Position numbers and translations under genes: made by a program
The notes under the pieces: generated by a model
The model's input: the letters and a program-made list of their open reading frames with translations, nothing else
Databases searched by the model: none
Told to the model about the DNA's origin: nothing
Shown: positions 14,185-36,664 of the stretch, one piece after another
How positions within the stretch are numbered: position 1 is the first letter of the stretch
Layout of the letters: every line of letters begins with the position of its first letter
Source: Podarcis vaucheri
Lineage: Eukaryota
Length of the DNA: 64,000 nt
NCBI GenBank assembly: GCA_965113315.1
Contig: OZ220371.1
Reading direction: 5' to 3' (one strand)

Positions 14185-15754
14185 CAGGTGAAACTTGAAA
14201 AATTAGAATATTGTGGAAAAGTTCATTTGTTTCAGTAATTCAACTTAAAAGGTGAAACTAATAAATGAGATAGACTCATGACATGCAAAGCGAGGTATGT
14301 CAAGCCTTTATTTGTTATAATTGTGATGTTTATGGCGTACAGCTGATGAAAACCCTAAATTAACAATCTCAGAAAATTAGAATATTAAATGAAATCAGCA
14401 AAACAAGGACTGCAAATAGAGCAATATTGCACCTCTGAGAAGTAGAAGCATGCGTATATACTCAGTGCTTGGTTTGGGCCCCTTTTGCATCAATTACTGC
14501 CTCAATGTGGCGTGACATGGATGCTATCAGCCCATGGCACTGCTGAGATATTATGGAAGACCAGGAAGCTTCAATAGCAGCCTTCAGCTCTTCTGCATTG
14601 CTCGGTCTCATATCTCTCATCTTTCTCTTGGCAATGCCCCATAGATTCTCTATGGGGTTCATGTCAGGCGGGTTTGCTGGCCAATCAAGCACAGTAATCC
14701 CATGGGCATTGAACCAGGTTTTGGTACTTTTGGCAGTGTGGGCAGGTGACAAAGTCCTACTGGAAAATGAAATCAGCATCCCCATAAAGCTTGTCTGTGG
14801 AAGGAAGCATGAAGTGCTCCAAAATCTGGTAGACGGCAACGTTGACCCTGGACTTAATGAAGCACAGTGCACCAACACCAGCTGATGACATGGCTCCCCA
14901 AATCTATTTTCTGATGAGAGCAGCTTTTGCATCTCATTTGGAAACCAAGGACCCAGAGTCTGGAGGAAGAATGGGGAGGCACACAACGCCAGATGCTTGA
15001 AGTCCAATGTGAAGTTTCCACAGTCTGTGTTGATTTGGGGAGCCATGTCATCAGCCGGTGTTGGTCCACTGTGCTTCATTAAGTCCAGGGTCAATGCAGC
15101 CATCTACCTAAAGATTTTGGAGCACTTCATGCTACCTTCTGCAGACGAGCTTTATGGGGATACTGATTTCATTTTCCAGCAGGACTTTGTCACCTGCCCA
15201 CACTGCCAAAAGTACCAAAACCTGGTTCAATGCCCATGGGATTACTGCGCTTGATTGGCCAGCAAACCCGCCTGACATGAACCCCATAGAGAATCTATGG
15301 GGCATTGCTAAGAGAAAGATGAGAGACATGAGACCGAGCAATGCAGAAGAGCTGAAGGCTGCTATTGAAGCTTCCTGGTCTTCCATAATATCTCAGCAGT
15401 GCCATGGGCTGATAGCATCCATGTCACGCCACATTGAGGCAGTAATTGATGCAAAAAGGGACCAAACCAAGTACTGAGTACATATGCATGCTTCTACTTC
15501 TCAGAGGTAAAATATTGCTCTATTTGCAGTCCTTGTTTTGCTGATTTCATTTAATATTCTAATTTTCTGAGATTGTTAATTTGGGGTTTTCATCAGCTGT
15601 ACGCCATAAACATCACAATTATAACAAATGAAGGCTTGATATACCTCGCTTTGCATGTCATGAGTCTATCTCATTTATTAGTTTCACCTTTTAAGTTGAA
15701 TTACTGAAATAAATGAACTTTTCCACAATATTCTAATTTTTCGAGTTTCACCAG
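14185..15754. mobile_element. Foldback (palindromic) non-autonomous Tc1 element
   Basis: TA on both flanks; termini caggtgaaac...gtttcaccag; 14185-14904 is the reverse complement of 15032-15754 with few mismatches. Confidence 0.93.
14905..15477 (+). pseudogene. Tc1 transposase catalytic (DDE) domain, frameshifted, N-terminus absent
   Basis: FSDES...VWR...IWGAM...FQQD, a +1 frameshift, then PAH...LDWPANPPDMNPIENLW. Confidence 0.9.
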
Positions 15755-22796: not shown

Positions 22797-22947
22797 ATGG
22801 AGCACTTGGACAATCTTCTCATTGTCTGGTTACATTTCTTTATTTTTTATTTTCCCCCCTTTTTTAAAAATCCTCTCTAGTCCCTTAAATAATTTAATTC
22901 CCCCCTTTATTTCCCCTTTCTTTTTAATCCTCTCTAGTCCCTTAAAT

Positions 22948-23615
22948 TGAAGCCTTATTTACCTAGGGATCCATTAGCCACGCCATCCCCTGGACCTCGG
23001 AGGGAACAAAAGTACCAGGAAAGCAAAAATCTTCTTTGGAGAAAAGAGTTTATTGAAAATCTGTGCACAGAGACAAGGTCTGTACTCAGAGACAACCAGC
23101 TGGATAGTTCCTGAAAATACACTGGCTGTAAAGCAAGTCACTTCAGCACACTTTCTTATACCCGCAGACTTCCCCAATCGGCTAGCAAATATTGCTTGCT
23201 AAACACAAAATATTGCCTGCTAGACATTCCTGTCTTTCTGCTAAGCCAAGCACTCCCTTCCACCTCCTTGTACACGTGTCTTCTTTTGCTAGCTAAGCTT
23301 TCCCTTCGTATCTCTTCCTATTCTTGCATTACTAAGCAGAAGTAAAGCAGGAAACATCTTGCTAGTGGTTTTCTAGTTAACAGCAGTTTCTGGCTAGGCA
23401 GGAAGCGACCTTCTGACCTGTAGCTAACATCAGCAGTTTCAAATAGCTGGTTAGGCAGGAAATGGACTTTTGCCCTGCCAGCCAAATTTAGCACAGTCAC
23501 TGGCGGCGTGCTAACTGTCTGGCCAAAATTTGCAGAAGTTGCAGAAGTAAGATTTCTTAGGTACAGAATACAAAGCACAGAAAATATTGAGAGAAACCTT
23601 TCCCATCTTCCTTTA
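22948..23615 (-). repeat. ERV 3' LTR
   Basis: No difference seen versus 29118-29785; minus-strand TATAAG (~23155-23160) and AATAAA (23049-23054). Confidence 0.95.
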
Positions 23616-23632
23616 CTCCCTCCTCTTCTTTT
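23616..23632 (-). promoter_or_regulatory. Polypurine tract
   Basis: Minus-strand AAAAGAAGAGGAGGGAG directly abuts the 3' LTR. Confidence 0.88.
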
Positions 23633-23642
23633 GAACAATCTA

Positions 23643-23891
23643 TTACTTAGATTCGTTCTGGGGTAGGGGTCTATATTCTCTCATTACAGCAATCACGCGA
23701 GGTCCCACCATATTCTGCAAGCATTGCATCAAGCAGGGAATACAAAAGCAAAGAAGCAATAGAAGCATTATTGGGCCTATTCTTCCCACAAATACGAGCA
23801 TCCATATGACAAGGGCGGTACATATCACTCCTACCCACCAAACCCAATATCTCCATGGTTCCTCCCACCAATATTCAGGGGGTGTGCTCAT
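23643..23891 (-). CDS. 82-aa membrane protein resembling the Env TM anchor and cytoplasmic tail
   Basis: ATG at 23891 (acaATGa); hydrophobic runs, LLLLLCFCIPCLMQCLQ and a YRPL (YxxL) motif; ends just before the PPT, as env does. Confidence 0.6.
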   Translation of the reverse strand: MSTPPEYWWEEPWRYWVWWVGVICTALVIWMLVFVGRIGPIMLLLLLCFCIPCLMQCLQNMVGPRVIAVMREYRPLPQNESK

Positions 23892-24117
23892 TGTTGAAGA
23901 GCCCACTGATATTTGTGCCCGACTACCTGTTGAGCCTCAAGGATGAGAGCCCACCGGTGAGCTGATGCTCCCACTATGTGGGTCAATTTTTCTACTAGCC
24001 CTGTTGGGTGGATTGAACTCTCGTGCTGCCTCCCTAGTGACCAGAACATATGGAAGCTGAAATCCTGGGGTGGCAATTCTTACTGGCACTTGTTTAGTAA
24101 TTTCAATGCACACCTGG

Positions 24118-24525
24118 CTAAGGCTCCCACCCCTGCAATACTTGCATTAAGATAGGTTCTGTCCCATCTATCACCTGGGTTAAGAGTAGGACCTGGTTTA
24201 TCAAATGAGGTTGGTACAGTGCTCTACCTTCCGGATAACAGTTGACTACCCTCCCACAACAGCAAGAGCGGTACAGAACTAGATAGATTTCGATCGTCTC
24301 TGCAGCTTCCCGTAAGTGTACTGTCCACGCGTGCTGGTCAGTGGTGTGGGAGAGGAGCCACAACGGGGTAGTGGGGTGTCTCAATACGGTAATCTCATCA
24401 AACCCCAGTTTCCAATAGCCAAGGAGCACGCCATCTCTTACCACCAGCAAGACGAACCAGTCGTAGCAGAGGCCAGCAGGCCAATAAGGGCGGTATGGTT
24501 CGGTAGGGTCAGGGCAATAAGACAT
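24118..24525 (-). CDS. Unassigned proviral accessory ORF (135 aa, MSYCPDP...QGWEP)
   Basis: Uninterrupted ORF between the pol remnants and the env tail; its ATG is the first one after the acceptor at 24850. Confidence 0.5.
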   Translation of the reverse strand: MSYCPDPTEPYRPYWPAGLCYDWFVLLVVRDGVLLGYWKLGFDEITVLRHPTTPLWLLSHTTDQHAWTVHLREAAETIEIYLVLYRSCCCGRVVNCYPEGRALYQPHLINQVLLLTQVIDGTEPILMQVLQGWEP

Positions 24526-24639
24526 AGAGCAAGTCAATAAAGAATATAAGAGAGAAAAGAGAAAGTCTTTGTAACTGTCCTTGTGATGATTAGTCGTTGC
24601 CCGTGGCCTAACGCTTTTTCCTGGTAGCGTCAGACACAA

Positions 24640-25270
24640 GGTGATGATCAACTTCAGAGGGTCAGCAGGATTTCTTTTGCAAGTCCTGACACCCTTCTTC
24701 AGATGCGTGTGATGTACCCAGGGGATCACCTCGATTACTTTCACTGCAGTTGGGGATGAGGGGGTCGCCAGACGCTGTCACTCAGAGGAACTGGTGAACC
24801 GGCTCAGCGAGACTGCCGCGGGACTGCAGGTGTACGCTCGAGGGAATACCTGGAAAGAAAGCAAACACACACAACAAACACAGGGATTGCACTTGTTCTT
24901 GGGTGATGTGATCTCCCATCTGCCCCAAACTGGCGGGGATGCCTCGGACGAAAGGGGTTGGCCTGCCATATAGAAGTTCACAGGGTGATAGCTCTCAGTC
25001 TCTTGGTTGGCGCACAGGGCACATATTGGGATATAGAATATTCTCCCAAGGTGTGCTTTAGCAGCTGGGCCTCCCAAATGGGTGGACTCGTGGTAATTCT
25101 TTACAATTGTGCTGGCCAGATGTTGGGGCACAAAAACATGGCTGTCTGGTCCTTCCTGGAGCGTTGCTCCTTTTTGGCTGGTCCACTGCTGTTCATCAAG
25201 GGTGTAACGTGGTTCCACATCATCTGGAGTGAGTTCTGGTACCAATATCAAAAGTTCTGGTGGTGCCTCT
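24640..25270 (-). pseudogene. Second, divergent integrase remnant (N-terminal HHCC region and C-terminal tail)
   Basis: PRYT...YHESTHLG...FYIPICALCA, then PTAVKVIEVIPWVHHTHLKK...DPLKL; these parallel motifs of the main integrase. Confidence 0.75.
24848..24880 (-). promoter_or_regulatory. Putative splice acceptor
   Basis: Minus strand tgtgtgtttgctttctttccag|gtatt, with the AG at 24851-24850. Confidence 0.6.
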
Positions 25271-25439
25271 AAATTGGCTGGAGAACAAATGTCTACGTTG
25301 GGGGCGCTGCCTGCGGGCGCCCCTCCCATCCAATTCTTCACCGTGCGTAGAGATATCAGCCTCTGGAGTGATATCAGCAAGGCAGTCGTCACTGGAGGGG
25401 ATCCTCAGGATGCTGAGACACAGTCCAATCTGAAGCAGC

Positions 25440-26470
25440 TTTCCTCCTTGAATGTGGTGGACCCAAGGGGTGGTGCCAGCGATCTTCACAGCTGTGGGTG
25501 TGGAGAGCAGATGGGCCCTTCCAGCACGGTTGCAGTGGTGCCTGGGACCAGTCTTATCCACACCTCGTCACTTGGCTCAAACTGGTCACGCAAGGAGTTC
25601 GGGCCTGGGTCCACCTGTTGAGAGAGAGAATCTCGAGAGAGAGACTGTACATAATTGTTCAATTCCACATCTTGAGCAGGTGAAAGCATGCACACATAAG
25701 GAACCGGTCTCCCAAACATCACTTCAAAAGGGTGACAAGTGAATACGTTTCAATGGGAGGCTACAGACTCTAAGCAAAGCCAAGGGCAACATGAACACCC
25801 AATTAGACCCGGTTTCCTGTGTCAGCTTGGACAGCTGATTCTTTAGAGTCCTGTTTATTCTTTCCACCTTTCCATAACTCTGGGGTCTATAAGCAGTATG
25901 CAGCTTCCAATTGATCTAGAGCGCTTTAGCCAGTCCCTGTAGGACTACATGAACGAATGCTGGTCCATTATCAGATCCTATGGACCTTGGCAATCCATAG
26001 CGAGGGATGATTTCCTTAAGCAGGCACCTGGTTACTTCAATTGCCTTTTCAGTCTTTGTTGGCCATGCTTCGACCCATCCGGTGTAAGTGCACACTGCCA
26101 CCAGCAGGTAGCGACATAATCCACAACGGGGTAATTCAGTGAAGTCTACCACAAGATCTTCCATTGGTGCAGTTCCACTGTGCTGAACTCCCGGGGGAGC
26201 CAGTGGTCCGGTTCTGGGATTATTCTTTTGACATAGCAGGCATTTTCTGGAAACCTGGGCTGCCAGTTGATAAAGGTGGGTTATATAGAAGCACTTTGCC
26301 AGCTGCTTGGTGGTAGCATCTGGTCCCATGTGGGTTGACTCATGGTATCTCTGAGTTATCTGCCGAGACAGGGACTCTGGAATCCATATCCTGTCATCAG
26401 GGGTGAGGTACCATCCTTCTTTGGTCAATGTCAGCTCCTAGGCATCTGCAGTGTCCCTTTCCTGTTGTGT
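25440..26470 (-). pseudogene. pol: Retroviral integrase with premature stops and frameshifts
   Basis: HESTH...CLLC, VDFTE, SDNGPAF, in-frame TAG at 25916-25918, then [23 protein letters not shown]; C-terminal PTAVKIAGTTPWVHH. Confidence 0.93.
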
Positions 26471-27443
26471 GTAAGCCGGCTTGTCAGCGGTGCTTAAAAT
26501 TTCTTCTGGGATCAGTGCTCCAATGATCGGAGCTGGGGCCAGTTCCCGGGCTGCTTCCTTGGCCACCTTGTCTGCCAGTCGATTTCCTCTGGCCACTTCC
26601 CCTGGTCCAGTTGTGTGTCCATAACAATGGATAACCGCTACTGCTTCGGGCTCCCATACAGCATCCAGAAGGTTCAATAAGGCTTGTGGGTGGGCCACCT
26701 GGTTTCCTCTGGAGGTAAGCAAACCTCTTTCTTTCCATAAGGCTCCATGGGCATGTAAAGTCAGGAATGCATACTTAGAATCTGTATAAATGTTTATTTT
26801 CTGATCCTTCGCCAGGCTCAGGGCTCTGGTAAGCGCAGTTAGTTCCGCCAGCTGGGCCGATGTTCCAGGTGGGAGTGACTTTGCTTCAATCACCTGGTCT
26901 TCCAGGGCTACCACTGCATAGCCTGCCTTCCGCTGCCCAGCCTCGTTTGCCTCGTCTTTGAGATCAGGCCTGCTGGAATATACTTCGTCCATTACTTCAA
27001 TGCAATCGTGCATCTGCTCCTCACCTTCTCCTACCGGCAACAGGGTAGCTGGGTTGAGGGCAGTGGTGACTTGGAACTTCAAACGTGGGTGCAACAATAA
27101 CATCTGACACTTTCTCATCTTTGCTTGGGAGAGAAAATAGGTACCCTTCATGTCAAGCAGTGCTGGGACTGCGTGTGGAGTCACACAAACAGTGTCTTGA
27201 CCAAAAGTAAATTTGTCTGCTTTGTTCAGTAGGGTGGCTACTGCCACAATCACTCTCATACGGGGGGGGCAACCTCTGTTCTGTTGGGGTTAGCTTCTCT
27301 GACAAGTATGCGACAGGTTGCTGCCAATTTTTCAGTTTCTGGCATAAGACTCCCTTGGCTACCCCTTGGTCTTCATCTATGAACAGGGTAAAAGGCTTCT
27401 TGGGGTTTGGATGCCAAGCACTGGGGCTTGTTAGCAATGCTTC
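26438..27443 (-). pseudogene. pol: RT connection domain and RNase H remnant
   Basis: ALLT..P..KPFTLFIDE..GVAKGVL.QKL..W..PVAYLS; LNPATLLP; SAQLAELTALTRAL; IYTDSKYAF; GNRLAD. The first RNase H motif (TDGSS) is deleted. Confidence 0.92.
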
Positions 27444-28541
27444 TGTAGTTAGTAGTGAGTCCAGGGGATATTGTTCATCATCACAAGTGGGATTATAGGT
27501 TTTTTTAAAAAAAATCCCTTCAAACAATTCTACAATCTTTGCTGGATTCTCCTCAAAAGAGGGGTTCTGATCTCTCCAATTACAGACATCTGCACTTGAA
27601 AAGGGTATATGCTGTCTGTGGTGCCTTCGCTTGTCCAGCTGGGACAGGGGCTGGTGGATCATAAACTCTCCGAAGGGGCATTTCTCCGGCTGCCTGATCC
27701 TTCCTGGTTTTCTCATACTGTCTGTGAGACATAACTCTCTTCGCCGCCTGTCCCCACTTCCTCTTTTCAGGGGTGTAGCATTTCTGTTGCCTCAACTAAC
27801 AAGGGACTCACATCCAACTTCTCCCTCAAATGGCTTTACAAACTCCTTTAGTCTCTTTTTCTGTTTTTCTGTCCACATTTTCTTTCCTTGATTCATATCA
27901 TCTAGTGTCTTCCTAAACTCTTCGTTATCTTCCTCATCTTCCTCTTCTTCCGTCTCACTATCTTCCTTCGCAGGTCCTCCTCCCCCTACACCAGCACCTC
28001 CCTGTGCTTCTTGATCTTGGCCTGGGGGGGGGTTGGAGGGGGCTGTTGGTGGAGTGTAAGGTGGTGGCTTAATTACTCCCCTCTCCTCATCTTCTGGGTC
28101 TTCTAACACCAGAGGCTTCACTGTACAAATCCTGTTCTGTGTGTTGCTGTCACAGCAAGACTTTAGCCATGGTAGATTCTTTTCTTTTACATTGGTCTTC
28201 CATGTAGAGATATAGGGGATCTGGTTTGGGTGGACATTTAATATATTTTGCCACAGGGGGTTGATTTGCCACAGGGGGTTGATTAATTGCAAATCAAAGC
28301 CACGCAGTTCCCTGGGTTGGCAAGTCCACCTCACATAAAGTTCTGAGTCTCTGTTCTTTTCAATTTGAATCCCCAAATCATCACTCTTCGTGGCCGCTTT
28401 CCAGTTATTTAAAAAAAAACATTCAGATACTCTGCTCCTAACAGGGTTTCAAAATTCTCTCACACTCCACATGCTACATATTGTCAGAAAATGCACAACC
28501 TTACAATCGCTCGGCCAAGGGGACACTAAGCCTTGGCCCAC
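27444..28541 (-). pseudogene. gag: gag remnant (MA, late-domain region, N-terminal CA)
   Basis: HPNQIPYISTW (gammaretroviral MA motif), PPPY and PTAP, PFSSADVCNW..QNPSFEENP...NPTCDD (p30 N-terminus); stops and frameshifts; start position uncertain. Confidence 0.88.
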
Positions 28542-28891
28542 ACTTGACAATTCAGTCACTAGAGTATCTGACATGCAACATACAACATACAAAACACATC
28601 AATATAACACACTAAACACACCAAAATAACTCCAGCATGCAATACACCAAAATAATTCTGACATGCAACATGCCAAAAAAACACACACACACAATTCCCT
28701 CTGCCCCATTCCCTTTCCCAAACCTTACTGGCGCCCCATTCCCTTTCCCAAACCTTACCAATTCCTTTCCTGGTGGCACTCTTACTGCACGGGCACTGTA
28801 CTGCCAACTACCAGGTGAGGCTGATCAGGCCTCTCGCCCTTTCCATCGGGCCCCTAGCCCTTTCCCTCGGGCCCCTAGCCCTTTCCCTTGG

Positions 28892-28900
28892 GCTTACCTT
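28892..28900 (-). promoter_or_regulatory. Putative major splice donor in the proviral leader
   Basis: Minus strand AAG|GTAAGC, about 200 nt downstream of the PBS and upstream of gag. Confidence 0.6.
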
Positions 28901-29093
28901 TTTCCGCTGCGGACCTGTCCCCTTGGCGCCGTTCTGTCCTCTTATTCTCCCTCAACTAGATGTCTCCGCTCCAGGACGGTGTGGCAATCTCCCCCTACAA
29001 ACTGGCAGGGTGTGCACCGGAAATGCGAACGCCGATTGGAGCTGTTCACCTTGGTTGAGCCTGGCCCTCCGGTCCATATTGGGGAGGGGGCTT

Positions 29094-29111
29094 ATCCCGG
29101 ACGAGCCCCCA
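29094..29111 (-). promoter_or_regulatory. Primer binding site, tRNA-Pro
   Basis: Minus strand TGGGGGCTCGTCCGGGAT, the canonical MLV-type tRNA-Pro PBS. Confidence 0.95.
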
Positions 29112-29117
29112 GAGAGA

Positions 29118-29785
29118 TGAAGCCTTATTTACCTAGGGATCCATTAGCCACGCCATCCCCTGGACCTCGGAGGGAACAAAAGTACCAGGAAAGCAAAAAT
29201 CTTCTTTGGAGAAAAGAGTTTATTGAAAATCTGTGCACAGAGACAAGGTCTGTACTCAGAGACAACCAGCTGGATAGTTCCTGAAAATACACTGGCTGTA
29301 AAGCAAGTCACTTCAGCACACTTTCTTATACCCGCAGACTTCCCCAATCGGCTAGCAAATATTGCTTGCTAAACACAAAATATTGCCTGCTAGACATTCC
29401 TGTCTTTCTGCTAAGCCAAGCACTCCCTTCCACCTCCTTGTACACGTGTCTTCTTTTGCTAGCTAAGCTTTCCCTTCGTATCTCTTCCTATTCTTGCATT
29501 ACTAAGCAGAAGTAAAGCAGGAAACATCTTGCTAGTGGTTTTCTAGTTAACAGCAGTTTCTGGCTAGGCAGGAAGCGACCTTCTGACCTGTAGCTAACAT
29601 CAGCAGTTTCAAATAGCTGGTTAGGCAGGAAATGGACTTTTGCCCTGCCAGCCAAATTTAGCACAGTCACTGGCGGCGTGCTAACTGTCTGGCCAAAATT
29701 TGCAGAAGTTGCAGAAGTAAGATTTCTTAGGTACAGAATACAAAGCACAGAAAATATTGAGAGAAACCTTTCCCATCTTCCTTTA
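29118..29785 (-). repeat. ERV 5' LTR
   Basis: 668 bp, same as 22948-23615, adjacent to the PBS. Confidence 0.95.
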
Positions 29786-30569
29786 AAATAATTTAATTCC
29801 CCCCTTTTCCCGTTCGATTTCCCACCCCACCCCTTACCCTGCCCTGTGGGAAGATTCTCCCTGTATCTGTGGCTTGCCTTTCCCAATAGTGAGAGAGCCC
29901 CCCGTTAGGGGCTTTCTTTCGCAAAAAGGTTTCCCCCATTTCTCTTGTTGAAATTGTGTGGCTAGTCAGGGCTGTTCCCAGCTTAGCTGGTATCACTTTC
30001 GTTTATAGTATCCCCGAAGGTTGGCTTTATGGCTCTCTGTGCCTCCAAGGACTATGAGCACTCTGTATATGCTCTTGAACTATGCTGTTTCTGAACAAGT
30101 TTATTTTCCTTAAGCGGCCCATTTGTGATAAAATAACTTTGGGTTTCTTGAAGGGGTGCTTCCCTCTAAAAGGGCAAGCAGGGGTACCTGGACAAGCTAG
30201 GGGCTACCTCAACTCTGCTATTTCACTGGAAACATTTATGCCTGGCCTAGCAGGTGATCCTAGGGCTTTGCCCTAGAATTCGATGGCCTGGAAGTGTTTC
30301 TGGCCTGAATAGTGTCCCCATGTGGTCCATGAAGCATTGGTTTCACTGGGTCAGCGGATAGTGCCGGTAATGCCTAGGTTGCAGGATTGGTCCCTGTATG
30401 GGACAGCTGCATGCTCCCCCATTGCTCTACCTGGACACTTAGGTCCTTTTGGTGGTTACCTCACTGCGAGGGATGTAACAGGCGCCACATTTGCAATATG
30501 CAACTGGGAGAAAGCACCTTTGCGTGCCCGCATTGCAGTTTGCGTTGCAGAGCACGGCGCTGCACGGGC

Positions 30570-31057
30570 TGCAATTGCATTGCATTGCTAGGAGATTTGC
30601 AGTTGCATTGCACGGAGCGTGTGTGCATTGCATGGAGGGTGTGTGTGCATTGCACAGAGTGTGTAGTCGCATTGCATGGAGTGTGTTGTTGCATTGCACA
30701 GAGTGTGTTTTTTGCATTGCACGGAGTGTGTGTGCATTGCACGGAGTATGTAGTTGCATTGAACGGAGGGTGTGTGCAGTGCACGGAGTGTGTAGTTACA
30801 TTGCATGGAGTGTAGTTACATTGCATGAAGGGTGTGTGCATTGCAGGGAGTGTGTTTTGCATTGCACGGAGTGTGTAGTTGCATTGAACGGAGTGTGTAG
30901 TTGCATTGCACGGAGGGTTTGTGTGTGCATTGCACGGAGTGTGTAGTTGCACTGCACAGAGCGTGTTTTTTGCATTGCACGGAGTGTGTAGTTGCATTGC
31001 ATGGAGAGTGTGTGCACTGCACGGAGTGTGTTTTTTGCATTGCACAGAGTGTGTGTC
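30570..31057. repeat. Minisatellite, ~21 units of 20-24 bp with core TGCATTGCACGGAGTGTG
   Basis: Directly visible tandem array with variable tails (tagt / tg / ttttt). Confidence 0.95.
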
Positions 31058-31227
31058 TGAAAAGGAAGCTGGCTCGGCGGCAGCTTGGTTGGGACTTCTT
31101 TAGGGGTTCTGGCCAGCGTCGGCCCTGTAAATTTACATATCATGTTGGCAGCACAAGATGCCCACTGCCCAAGCGGGGGCTGGAAGCTGGCAAGCAATAG
31201 CTCAATACCTTTTGCCCATATTCCCAT

Positions 31228-31375
31228 TTTATTTAGGGATCCAGTTGGATATCGTTGCTAAAACATACCACTTGCCTATGGAGAAGCTGTCTGCCTTGAA
31301 GGAAGTTATTTTGTAATACTTCCTCTGTAGCAAGTGATGCTTCACCAGATCCGATCTTGCTGGGTCACTTAACTA
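31228..31375 (+). pseudogene. DIRS/Ngaro reverse transcriptase C-terminal remnant
   Basis: YLGIQLDIVAKTYHLPMEKLSALKEVI...LLGHL resembles the DIRS RT motif FLGI.LD.....LP.EK...LLGHL. Confidence 0.75.
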
Positions 31376-33394: not shown

Positions 33395-35400
33395 AAGAGC
33401 AGCTGTGCACATTTGGGCCACAGCATTGTACACTAGGCTGGCAAGCATGTTGACGGGTTTGGACTGGGGCGCCATCTCAGTCTTCCTGCCCATGTGAACA
33501 TATACAGGATGTCTAGATGGGGAATGCTTTGGGAGGAGATCCTTCCTTTGGTGCGGTCGAGTGTGACCTGTGCAGGTCCTCCCGCAGTGCTGGTGGTACA
33601 GCTGTGCGAGAATGTTTGCTGTCTTCCTCCAGCATAAGTTTGCATTCCTGCATGCAAGAGGGCTTGGATTGAGTTGATGGCAGCTCTCCCTGGACTCAAA
33701 ATAATTTAAGGCATTGGTTCAAGGTGGTCTGGAGGGGGGGTTGGAGCACCTGTCCCCTCCAATGCGCAAAGATGTTCCATTAAGGGAATCCAAGGATTCG
33801 CCATGCTTTTGTCGACCCCTTTTGAGGGGTAGGGCCATGCAAGAGTCCCTGGGAGCATTTGGGGTGAGCTTGAGTCCGATCCTGGTTCATTGCTCCCCCA
33901 TGCTGTTTACTGGAACTGACGATATGGTGGGGCCCAGTCGTCAGTGCTGCCCTGCTGAGGTCAGGTGCAGCTAGTCGGGACCCAGTGCCTAGACAAACTA
34001 CCACCGAGCAGGCCAGAAAGCATGTTAATAAGGCGGTGGATAATAGAATAAAATAAAGAAAATAAATAAAGTAAATAAAATAAAATAGGTCCTTGCTTTA
34101 GGTGGTTCTGTAATATTGCACCCTCCTAATTTTCTTCAAGGCTGTTGCCCTCTTTAGGGCAGATGGGGTGCATCTGTCCCCTATGGGGAACGACACCTGG
34201 CGGGATGCGATTGCCTTGGGATTCATTGCTCCCCCACAATGTTTGCTGGTACTGACGATATGGTGGGGCCCAGTCGTCAGTGCTGCCCTGCTGAGGTCAG
34301 GTGCAGCTAGTCGGGAACCAATGCCTAGACAAACTACCACCAAGAAGGCCGGAAAGCTTGTTAATAAGGCAGTGGAAATAAAATACAGGTCGTTGGAAAT
34401 CGAATGCATTCAAAGGTTATGTTCGTTAACATTATTGGTGTCTTACAATTTTTGCTTGTTTTATCTTAGGTTTAGCAGCTGTCCGCATCTGGATGGCGGT
34501 GCACAGCATCATGCATTGGGCTGGCATCAGTGCACGGCAGTCCGGATTGGGACCGGGTCTCGGCCTTCCTCCATGTGCAGTTGCCTTGGCTGTCCAGACG
34601 GGGAATGCGCCGGCCAGAATTCCTGCCGCTGATTCGGAGGCAGGTGCTGCTGGAAGGGCCGCCCACTGCTGTTGGGGTGCAGCTGGGTGAGAATGACCTG
34701 TGTGGCCATGGACTGTTTTTCGCTACGTGCTGCGATTTTGGGTGACCTGGAGACGCTGCGGGCAATGGTGCCAACAGCAAAAAATTTTCTGATCAAAGCT
34801 TTTGCAACGACGCATTTGGAGGGGCAGTCGTTGCCCAGCTGCCACTGAAAGGGCCAGAAAACTCATCAATTCTGCTGTTTCAAAAGATTTTTGAGCTGGG
34901 TGGAGATGTGATTTCCCACCCCGAGATTCTTTTTGAGAGGCCATCCTTTTTCCGAGCTGATGGCGTGCACCTTTCTGCTTCAGGGAATGAGGCTTGGATA
35001 GGTGCGGTGGTGGCCAAGCTGAGGTCTTGGTTTAATACAGCTGGGAGAGAACGACCTGGTGGCTATGCGCCGTTCTTCACTGCGTGCTGCAATTTGGATG
35101 GACTTGGGGACATTGCGGGCAATGGTGCCTACAGCAATGATATTTTGGTCTCAGCTTTTGCAACGATGCGTCTGGAGGGGCAGTCGTTGCCCAGTCGCCA
35201 CAGAAAGGGCCAGAAAGCGCATCAATTCTGCTGTGACACACCGGATTGCTGAGCTGGGTGGAGATGTGATTTCTCACCCTGCGATTCTTTTTAAGATGCC
35301 ATCCTTTTTCCGAGATGATGGCGTGCACCTTTCTGCTTCAGGGAATGAGGCTTGGTTAGGTGCGGTGGCTGCCAAGCTGAGGTCTTGGTTGGGGCTGTGA
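33395..35400 (+). pseudogene. Tandem SGNH/GDSL-like hydrolase remnants (about 2.5-3 copies)
   Basis: GHSIVH / VHSIMHWA (block I-like), VQLGENDL (block III), and FRADGVHLS / FRDDGVHLS (DxxH) at ~34155, ~34955 and ~35315. Confidence 0.82.
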
Positions 35401-35428: not shown

Positions 35429-35849
35429 TGGCGGTTAGGCATTGGTTAATTGGTGCTTGGAGGGGTAAGTGCCTACCCCTCCAAATGATGCGGAAAGGGA
35501 ATTCCGTTAAAGGAATCCAGGGGCTTGCCATTCTTTTGTCCTTGTCCGTGGAGCCGGACTTGGGCCGTGCAAGCCCCACCGGAACATGAGGGTCAGAAGT
35601 GAGGGCTTGTTTCCCGGCCTCCCTTCTATCCAATACTTGTTTCCCACGCTGGCTTCCGGTGGAGTCCGGAAGGGCCAGCCCTGTCCTTGAGGGCCAGGAC
35701 AGATAGTCATAACCAATGCCTAAGCAACCACTCACAATTTTTTGTATTTTGAATAAAGTTGTGGCCAAAATTATGCCAAAAACCTTAAACAAAATTGATG
35801 TGTGAAGTGTGTAATTATTTGGGGGGTGGCACTGTGGAACTCAACACGC
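35429..35849 (+). repeat. Ngaro split direct repeat B1
   Basis: 421 bp; one mismatch seen versus B2; AATAAA at 35752. Confidence 0.93.
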
Positions 35850-35852
35850 AAA

Positions 35853-36243
35853 GCGTGTTCTCCCTAACAGAGAGCACGTGTTGCGGTTGGGGAACAGGCC
35901 GCCCAGCCATGACTAGGCAAATTAATCTGCAACCCTGGCCTTTAGGGTTAATCGGGTTGCTGGGGGAATATGATTGTTACCAATTTGGAGGAGGAGTCAG
36001 AAGCTTTAAATAGAAGGGCCAGACGTAGGGACGTCCTCTTGGCCGTTTTGCATCGGATCACCCGCCCTCCCTCCCTTTAATAGGGGGGTTTTTTATTTAA
36101 GCTGATCGCTTGACCTTGCTATGCCTGTCATGGTGTCGTTCGCCTTGGTGCGGGGGCACGGTAGGAATTTTGCCATCTGGCTGACTGGCTGGTGCCATTT
36201 GGTTTTTGCCTACTGCGTAGCAAATCGTCACAACTTGTAAGGT
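35853..36243 (+). repeat. Ngaro split direct repeat A2
   Basis: First 209 bp match A1; the remainder has no counterpart at the 5' end. Confidence 0.85.
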
Positions 36244-36664
36244 TGGCGGTTAGGCATTGGTTAATTGGTGCTTGGAGGGGTAAGTGCCTACCCCTCCAAA
36301 TGATGCGGAAAGGGAATTCCGTTAAAGGAATCCAGGGGCTTGCCATTCTTTTGTCCTTGTCCGTGGAGCCGGACTTGGGCCGTGCAAGCCCCACCGGAAC
36401 ATGAGGGTCAGAAGTGAGGGCTTGTTTCCCGGCCTCCCTTCTATCCAATACTTGTTTCCCACGCTGGCTTCCGGTGGAGTCCAGAAGGGCCAGCCCTGTC
36501 CTTGAGGGCCAGGACAGATAGTCATAACCAATGCCTAAGCAACCACTCACAATTTTTTGTATTTTGAATAAAGTTGTGGCCAAAATTATGCCAAAAACCT
36601 TAAACAAAATTGATGTGTGAAGTGTGTAATTATTTGGGGGGTGGCACTGTGGAACTCAACACGC
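36244..36664 (+). repeat. Ngaro split direct repeat B2 (3' terminus)
   Basis: 421-bp copy of B1 ending in tcaacacgc, followed by aaa. Confidence 0.93.

Follow-up and report, generated by a model that had tools for sequence, protein, structure and literature searches.

Does a 135-aa open reading frame surviving in a broken retroviral insertion of the lizard Podarcis vaucheri encode a protein, and what kind of gene would it be? The window analysed here is a 64,000-nt stretch of contig OZ220371.1 (assembly GCA_965113315.1), in which the initial annotation had reported an intact frame of this length; its coordinates and quoted translation were verified (Table 1). The frame is probably a genuine accessory gene, belonging to a protein family not described before, and we regard this as the best reading because the frame has diverged relatives that are open, its substitutions are somewhat conservative and its predicted fold is repeatable. 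A literature search confined to main texts and mostly to open papers found no account of the ORF or of the element, which repeat libraries or supplementary tables may hold, and the accessible parts of PMC9723728 and PMC13568524 contain nothing relevant.

Table 1. Features of the provirus and of the candidate gene it carries, in window coordinates
Feature	Position	Strand	Remarks
Provirus	29785-22948	minus	6.8 kb; holds the 135-aa ORF
5' LTR, 668 bp	29118..29785	minus	668 of 668 positions the same as in the 3' LTR; ATTT 4-bp target duplication at both flanks
Primer-binding site, tRNA-Pro type	29094..29111	minus	read from sequence
Candidate splice donor AAG/GTAAGC	28892..28900	minus	first intron base 28897; 8 of 9 consensus positions; one of 3 such sites in 29330-23640
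gag remnant	27450..28541	minus	approximate bounds; presumed start without ATG; stops, frameshifts, truncated capsid
First pol remnant (RT connection, RNase H, integrase)	25400..27450	minus	approximate bounds; broken
Second pol tail (RNase H end, integrase N- and C-terminal pieces)	24640..25272	minus	condensed and decayed; holds the acceptor
Candidate splice acceptor	24850..24872	minus	last intron base 24850; richest pyrimidine tract among 5 candidates in 26500-24500
135-aa ORF, family not recognised	24118..24525	minus	ATG 24525; stop 24120-24118
Weak candidate second acceptor	24001..24024	minus	inferred; first ATG downstream is the env ATG
env lacking SU and TM ectodomain (82-aa mini-Env)	23643..23891	minus	matches the two ends of P0011
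Polypurine tract	23616..23632	minus	read from sequence
3' LTR, 668 bp	22948..23615	minus	matches the 5' LTR letter for letter

The carrier provirus

The provirus is non-autonomous, with gag and pol broken and partly deleted. Its insertion is young, since the LTRs are identical and are found together with a target duplication, a primer-binding site and a polypurine tract. In the gag remnant, Pfam gives a weak match to Gag_MA (E 0.021) and a match to Gag_p30 (E 2e-7) that is followed in one frame by a match to the RT-RNase H linker; because capsid sequence joins this linker directly, the protease and the RT core must have been deleted. The first pol remnant matches RNase_H (E 3.5e-22), rve (E 1.4e-12) and Integrase_H2C2 (E 3e-12). 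The carrier shows the features of a gamma-like (class I) ERV, namely Gag_p30, a MuLV-type integrase end (MLVIN_C), a primer-binding site that we take to be the PBS-Pro of MuLV, a 4-bp target duplication and an env of the TLV_coat family, and it is on these features rather than on an RT phylogeny that the class call rests, the RT core being deleted.

Several further observations were made around the element. The element is inserted within a short, repeated stretch rich in purines (22880-22947 and 29786-29830). Elsewhere in the window there are transposase-like frames near 14.5-15.5 kb (14462-15477), presumably of the Tc1 type, as well as a degenerate short-unit tandem array (30580-31260), copies lying about 340-360 nt apart (33886-35390) and a direct repeat at least 300 nt long (35429-36543).

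A second pol tail and the true start of env

Between the first pol remnant and the ORF lies a second pol tail, which resembles the first pol at the protein level (36% of residues identical across 88 aa, E 3e-12; at the integrase end, 65% across 17 aa), gives no useful match to it at the DNA level and has a weak Pfam match to MLVIN_C (E 0.034). CpG depletion is milder in this second remnant and the ORF, taken together, than it is in gag-pol (Fisher p 0.02), as would be expected of separate origins; the 3' block that starts with the second pol tail was likely recombined in from another retrovirus, the acceptor of that donor virus being retained. On the minus strand at 25329-24778 there is also a 183-aa ATG-started frame, mostly second pol tail, which together with the ORF frame amounts to 428 codons with one stop; a 4-nt insertion (24864, run X1) and extra letters near 25036 (run X9) suggest that it is lost in relatives. 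In three of the runs discussed below (X1, X9 and X16), a 978-nt deletion from 26211 to 25232, at a 7-nt microhomology, has removed most of the first integrase and retained the acceptor and the ORF.

The ORF had been described as occupying the env position, an assignment that has to be revised, for env begins with the ATG at 23891, a further 226 nt beyond the ORF stop, and the ORF sits between pol and env. A search with the mini-Env returned three full-length Envs among 31 candidates, two of them Podarcis muralis RefSeq proteins and one unnamed; the Podarcis matches agree with a lizard host, likely a lacertid or a related form. The frame from ATG 23891 matches P0011 at 82% to residues 1-34 and then at 62% to residues 459-516, and residues 1-34 of the two P. 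muralis Envs are matched at 82% by the window's env start; judged from these alignments, the mini-Env is an ordinary env with an internal deletion of the ectodomain. The Envs of this family (P0011, P0012 and P0013) have a long leader with two hydrophobic segments (23891-23790 in the window). P0013 has the leader and tail common to the Podarcis Envs and an ectodomain that looks different, which hints at ectodomain exchange, and several P. muralis loci are called 'syncytin-1-like' in RefSeq.

That the ORF might itself be a fragment of Env SU was considered and is not borne out by its sequence: no frame resembles the three family Envs beyond chance (best blastp E 0.075), and there is no TLV_coat match. 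In a simple scan, the ORF and its relatives, all four of them, reach a hydropathy maximum of 0.8-1.5 (vs 3.2 in P0011) and carry no N-glycosylation sequon.

The open frame and chance

Within the provirus the ORF is a separate frame outside gag, pol and env, as is characteristic of an accessory gene. An antisense gene or one in another frame was rejected at this position, since all the other frames, on either strand, contain many stops. The ORF frame is open upstream to 24777 (219 aa) in the window copy, with an in-frame hydrophobic run 5' of the ATG; an extension from 24777 serving as signal peptide was nevertheless discarded, since it begins in integrase remnant and runs through a region in which relatives carry frameshifts. 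Because of these upstream frameshifts, ATG 24525 is the likely start; its context is weak.

The extent to which such a frame may arise by chance was assessed by shuffling the 1234-nt stretch 24850-23617 under a Markov model 2000 times. An ATG-started ORF of at least 135 aa appeared in about 1% of the shuffles, and the first 324 nt were free of ATG in 0.15%, this being the length of the ATG-free gap that had been pointed out after the acceptor and that was confirmed (the minus strand has no ATG from 24900 down to 24525); both tests, of ORF length and of ATG gap, were chosen post hoc, after the feature was seen. ATG-started frames of 273, 187, 183 and 137 aa persist in the gag and pol remnants of the same provirus, so that ORF length by itself is little proof, given the post hoc nature of the shuffle test and the longer frames elsewhere. 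The annotation's argument that the ORF is open while gag and pol are wrecked carries little weight within this copy, other long frames having survived in the broken genes. A further ATG frame, of 215 aa on the plus strand at 28637-29284, spans the LTR end and the leader; it is of low complexity and probably a chance frame.

Diverged relatives and the pattern of substitution

A word-based search with the ORF found two matches among 19 candidates, and a HMMER search of 1.84 billion representatives of all lengths found four, of 91-147 aa, all unnamed and all present in Logan only. Three of these are open over most of their length and have a Met at the same place or near it, with 76% (P0004), 53% (P0006) and 36% (P0007, E 6e-4) identity to the ORF. 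In the fourth, P0005, about the first 49 residues follow the ORF frame and the rest corresponds to a different frame of sequence further downstream in the window; this marks it as a frameshifted deletion form, in a cluster of 4 whose representative occurs on 15 contigs. The invariant columns of the family contain many W, Y, P, G and C residues. No longer protein containing the ORF domain was found in the all-length HMMER search, nor among 8000 scored longer candidates, the latter being a weak test.

To judge the substitutions, neutral drift was simulated on the window DNA with stops barred, under four mutation models. The total BLOSUM score of the real relatives was reached in 2-13 of 1000 stop-free runs for P0006 and in 9-36 of 1000 for P0004. 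The mean mismatch score, a weak test because it uses mismatches only, was reached in 18-51 (P0006) and 62-128 (P0004) of 1000, and hydrophobic retention in 59-139 and 161-264 of 1000, respectively, which is not significant. Simulations for P0007 were given little weight, as its match is at the detection limit. In a first version of the simulation, only 91 and 259 of 3000 runs were stop-free at the observed divergence (3-9%). These are protein-level tests and not dN/dS, and the relatives come from a database of called ORFs, hence selected for open frames; with this in mind, the substitutions appear modestly more conservative than neutral drift and lean toward constraint at the protein level. 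The differences between the ORF and P0004 are distributed unevenly (3 of 40, 21 of 55 and 6 of 36), which could reflect selection or mosaic copies.

Family searches and predicted fold

Among Pfam families, searched to E 10 with all four members of the ORF family, only two chance matches were seen (E 0.085 and 0.33), and no dUTPase, retroviral cyclin, Vif or other Pfam-described accessory protein was matched; with no likeness to the family Envs either, the earlier judgement that the ORF is not SU, dUTPase or a retroviral cyclin is upheld at the level of sequence. There were no matches to the ORF among PDB sequences to E 10 and none in IMG/VR (0 of 40 stretches), and the ESM Atlas gave no usable match for the ORF or the mini-Env, its recognition of the ORF (1762) lying under the 2300 typical of known families. 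In JGI metagenomes 1 of 90 stretches (L001) matched and was dropped as an 18-residue chance match within a bacterial 450-aa ORF.

AlphaFold, given the four-sequence alignment, predicts for the ORF (P0002) a helix at residues 17-31, then five strands between 33 and 89, and a further helix at the C-terminus, with a mean pLDDT of 64 and a core at 76-82 in the one model of five that rises above 40 (the other four, 36-39). When P0006 leads the alignment the topology is unchanged, with a mean pLDDT of 59 and a core at 73-80 (46-50 in the other models). The two lead sequences are 49% alike; as one alignment is common to both runs, these are not independent. The structure check suggested in the annotation therefore yielded a repeatable prediction, a helix and a five-strand meander, but no meaningful fold match: no match at E 0.001 was found in PDB or BFVD, and the best VIA-align Z scores (5.6-6.1, to the unrelated sheets of p32/MAM33, polo-box and cytochrome P460) are below the tool's meaningful level, with models of middling confidence. 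The predicted fold may resemble those of Vif and TCL1/MTCP1, neither of which is among the listed fold matches, and no Env is among them either.

Sister copies of the element

The region 23620-25400 is partly present in 20 of the 24 listed runs, from 9 organisms, and the element family is young and abundant in several related species; none of the runs listed for this region is on record as RNA. Four runs were compared, X1 from organism A and X9, X16 and X24 from organism G. The kind of run is not on record for X1 and X9, X16 is guessed to be RNA, X24 is single-cell RNA of which about 6% was read, and no single piece spans 23620-25400. In X1 there is a 1-nt deletion at 24526, together with indels at 24619-24622, all upstream of the ORF ATG, as is a 10-nt insertion placed by end distances between 24545 and 24676 (X9) or 24687 (X16); inside the ORF there is none among the 12 indels listed out of 65. 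The X16 and X9 contigs listed are gap-free over codons 1-65 and 87-135, a stop being possible since 40 of 442 difference rows are listed, and one X16 contig joins the ORF end to the env start. Six substitutions are listed inside the ORF, three silent and three not, too few to judge.

Deletion forms occur beside these. In X1 the word depth of a 172-nt deletion inside the ORF is 4617, that of contigs spanning 24317 being 4482. A deletion of 1415 nt, which takes out the ORF altogether, has a depth of 84.5 in X9 and 13.3 in X16; in neither case does depth equal copy number. As regards the suspicion that the ORF is broken in most sister copies, deletion forms and gap-free contigs are both present. 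The window copy differs from all four compared runs at residues 27 and 70, the sites of two of the three non-silent substitutions, and its ORF ends 5 codons before P0004, peculiarities because of which this copy may itself be decaying.

Splice signals and RNA

Both the donor (28897) and the acceptor (24850) named in the annotation are present in the sequence. Its caution about leader ATGs is partly borne out, in that three are present (29156, 29144 and 29077) but open frames of only 7, 3 and 41 codons that end before the donor. The RNA examined comes from runs of a related species. The joint by which the proposed spliced mRNA would be recognised, from 28898 to 24849, is absent among the 15 joints listed out of 33 from the four runs. 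Raw RNA depth in X24 falls from about 286 in the leader to 8 immediately beyond the donor region, and stands at about 15 in the acceptor bin and 23-41 over the ORF. Because of the difference between the leader and the acceptor (~286 vs ~15), a 28898-to-24849 message is at most a minor one in X24. The reads over the region lie on both strands, and 66% of them continue into sequence that does not match. The ORF region is covered by RNA reads in a relative, which says nothing firm about strand, level or splicing.

Proposed mode of expression and role

In the parent virus, splicing likely ran from the donor in the leader to the acceptor within the old pol tail (28898 to 24849). On the resulting message ATG 24525 would be the first ATG of the second exon, preceded by the three short frames of the leader. 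Six ATGs, one of them in a strong context, precede env on this candidate message, so env would need another route, either the candidate second acceptor or reinitiation from a 53-codon frame. The latter, at 24049-23888 on the minus strand, has a stop that overlaps the env start (ATGA) in a termination-reinitiation layout, which may be due to chance. The product is predicted to be a small soluble protein of sheet and helix, likely acting inside the cell. Accessory proteins encoded between pol and env often bind host proteins, and it is conceivable, though on balance doubtful, that the ORF product does so too in the role of an adaptor, an idea drawn from position and fold type. The ORF likely mattered to the replicating parent virus, and defective copies would spread with help in trans, keeping or losing it. 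The suggestion that the ORF and the mini-Env form a functional payload finds no support, since the mini-Env is a deleted ordinary env and related copies are without part or all of the ORF.

Alternative explanations

An accessory gene has to be weighed against a non-coding stretch, a spacer or RNA element before env that is open by chance, with relatives that are simply the open copies picked by gene callers. The longer open frames in the same provirus, the 215-aa frame on its plus strand included, the common deletion forms and the lack of any family, fold or Atlas match all speak for it, and the stop-free fraction of neutral simulations would be enough for a few open copies in a high-copy family. 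It is, however, at odds with total substitution scores beyond neutral drift for P0006 and P0004, with the Met position common to the relatives, with the repeatable predicted fold and with the clustering of indels upstream of the ATG (among the 12 of 65 listed), and an RNA element in particular finds no Rfam match at E up to 1; on this evidence we consider a non-coding stretch a minor yet serious possibility.

Acquisition from the host is improbable in our estimate. According to this explanation a host gene or exon was captured, as was KIT ligand in CrocERV29, and has diverged beyond recognition or is unannotated in the host; it would occupy the same slot as in the crocodilian precedent (accessible text of PMC4299795), have a CpG content unlike that of gag-pol and count P0006 or P0007 as possibly cellular. 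Yet no named or annotated protein is among the matches in the protein databases searched, all four being Logan-only, there is no Pfam, PDB-sequence or clear fold match, and the CpG difference extends over the pol remnant too. Where the annotation had left a novel accessory gene and a captured gene side by side, the accessory gene is the best reading, and no host source came to light in the protein databases searched. We judge it very improbable that the ORF is the stump of an older env, the donor virus of the second pol tail having also contributed an env start that the present env later displaced. The ORF does follow the integrase end and acceptor of that tail at about the gammaretroviral distance, env beginning at such a distance from the integrase end in MuLV, and the hydrophobic run in frame 5' of the ATG in the window copy would suit a leader. 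But this hydrophobic frame is shifted in relatives, none of the four family members has a signal peptide or sequons, no longer protein with the domain came to light in HMMER at all lengths or, less tellingly, among the 8000 scored candidates, and the comparison with TLV_coat (no match) and the three family Envs (E 0.075 at best) is equally unfavourable. If the ORF is neutral, the element is an ordinary deleted ERV.

Comparison with known systems

Gamma-like retroviruses are commonly counted among the simple retroviruses, with gag, pol and env, and to our knowledge extra ORFs between pol and env are rare among them. Small intracellular proteins encoded in this position and expressed from spliced messages are familiar from lentiviruses (vif, vpr, S2 of EIAV, OrfA of FIV). 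The present locus is like them in its small pol-env ORF and candidate spliced message, and unlike them in having no Pfam, sequence or listed fold match and a gamma-like carrier (PBS-Pro, Gag_p30, MLVIN_C). If the accessory gene is real, it would bring the organisation of a complex retrovirus into a group held to be simple. The Podarcis muralis Envs XP_077783391.1 and XP_077790221.1 ('syncytin-1-like') belong to the same env family as the window's (82% over the first 34 residues, 62% over anchor and tail) and differ from it in being full length (517 and 465 aa). As the TM motif of this family is CX6CC, as opposed to the CX9CC given for Podarcis 'group 1' in the accessible part of bioRxiv 10.1101/2024.03.17.585361, the family lies outside that group. 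HERV-T3, as far as the available text of PMC5388530 describes it, offers another unexplained extra ORF of unknown function in a gamma-like ERV, located 5' of gag and compared here by position alone.

Taken as a whole, the scenario of a gamma-like lizard lineage with a true pol-env accessory gene, of an undescribed family and possibly fold, diverged to about 35% identity, expressed from a separate spliced mRNA and directed against a host factor of reptiles, is one that we put forward tentatively, at somewhat less than even chances. The closest comparison is the CrocERV29 lineage, in which the accessible text of PMC4299795 describes a KIT-ligand ORF between pol and env under measured purifying selection. 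It too is a reptile ERV with an extra pol-env ORF that is open among broken viral genes, but a host gene is recognisable there, whereas here no host source was found. The reptile precedent that we found for an ORF in this position is thus a captured cytokine, and a selected pol-env protein of unrecognisable origin would, if confirmed, add a family to the known retroviral proteins and offer a way to study the antiviral factors of reptiles.
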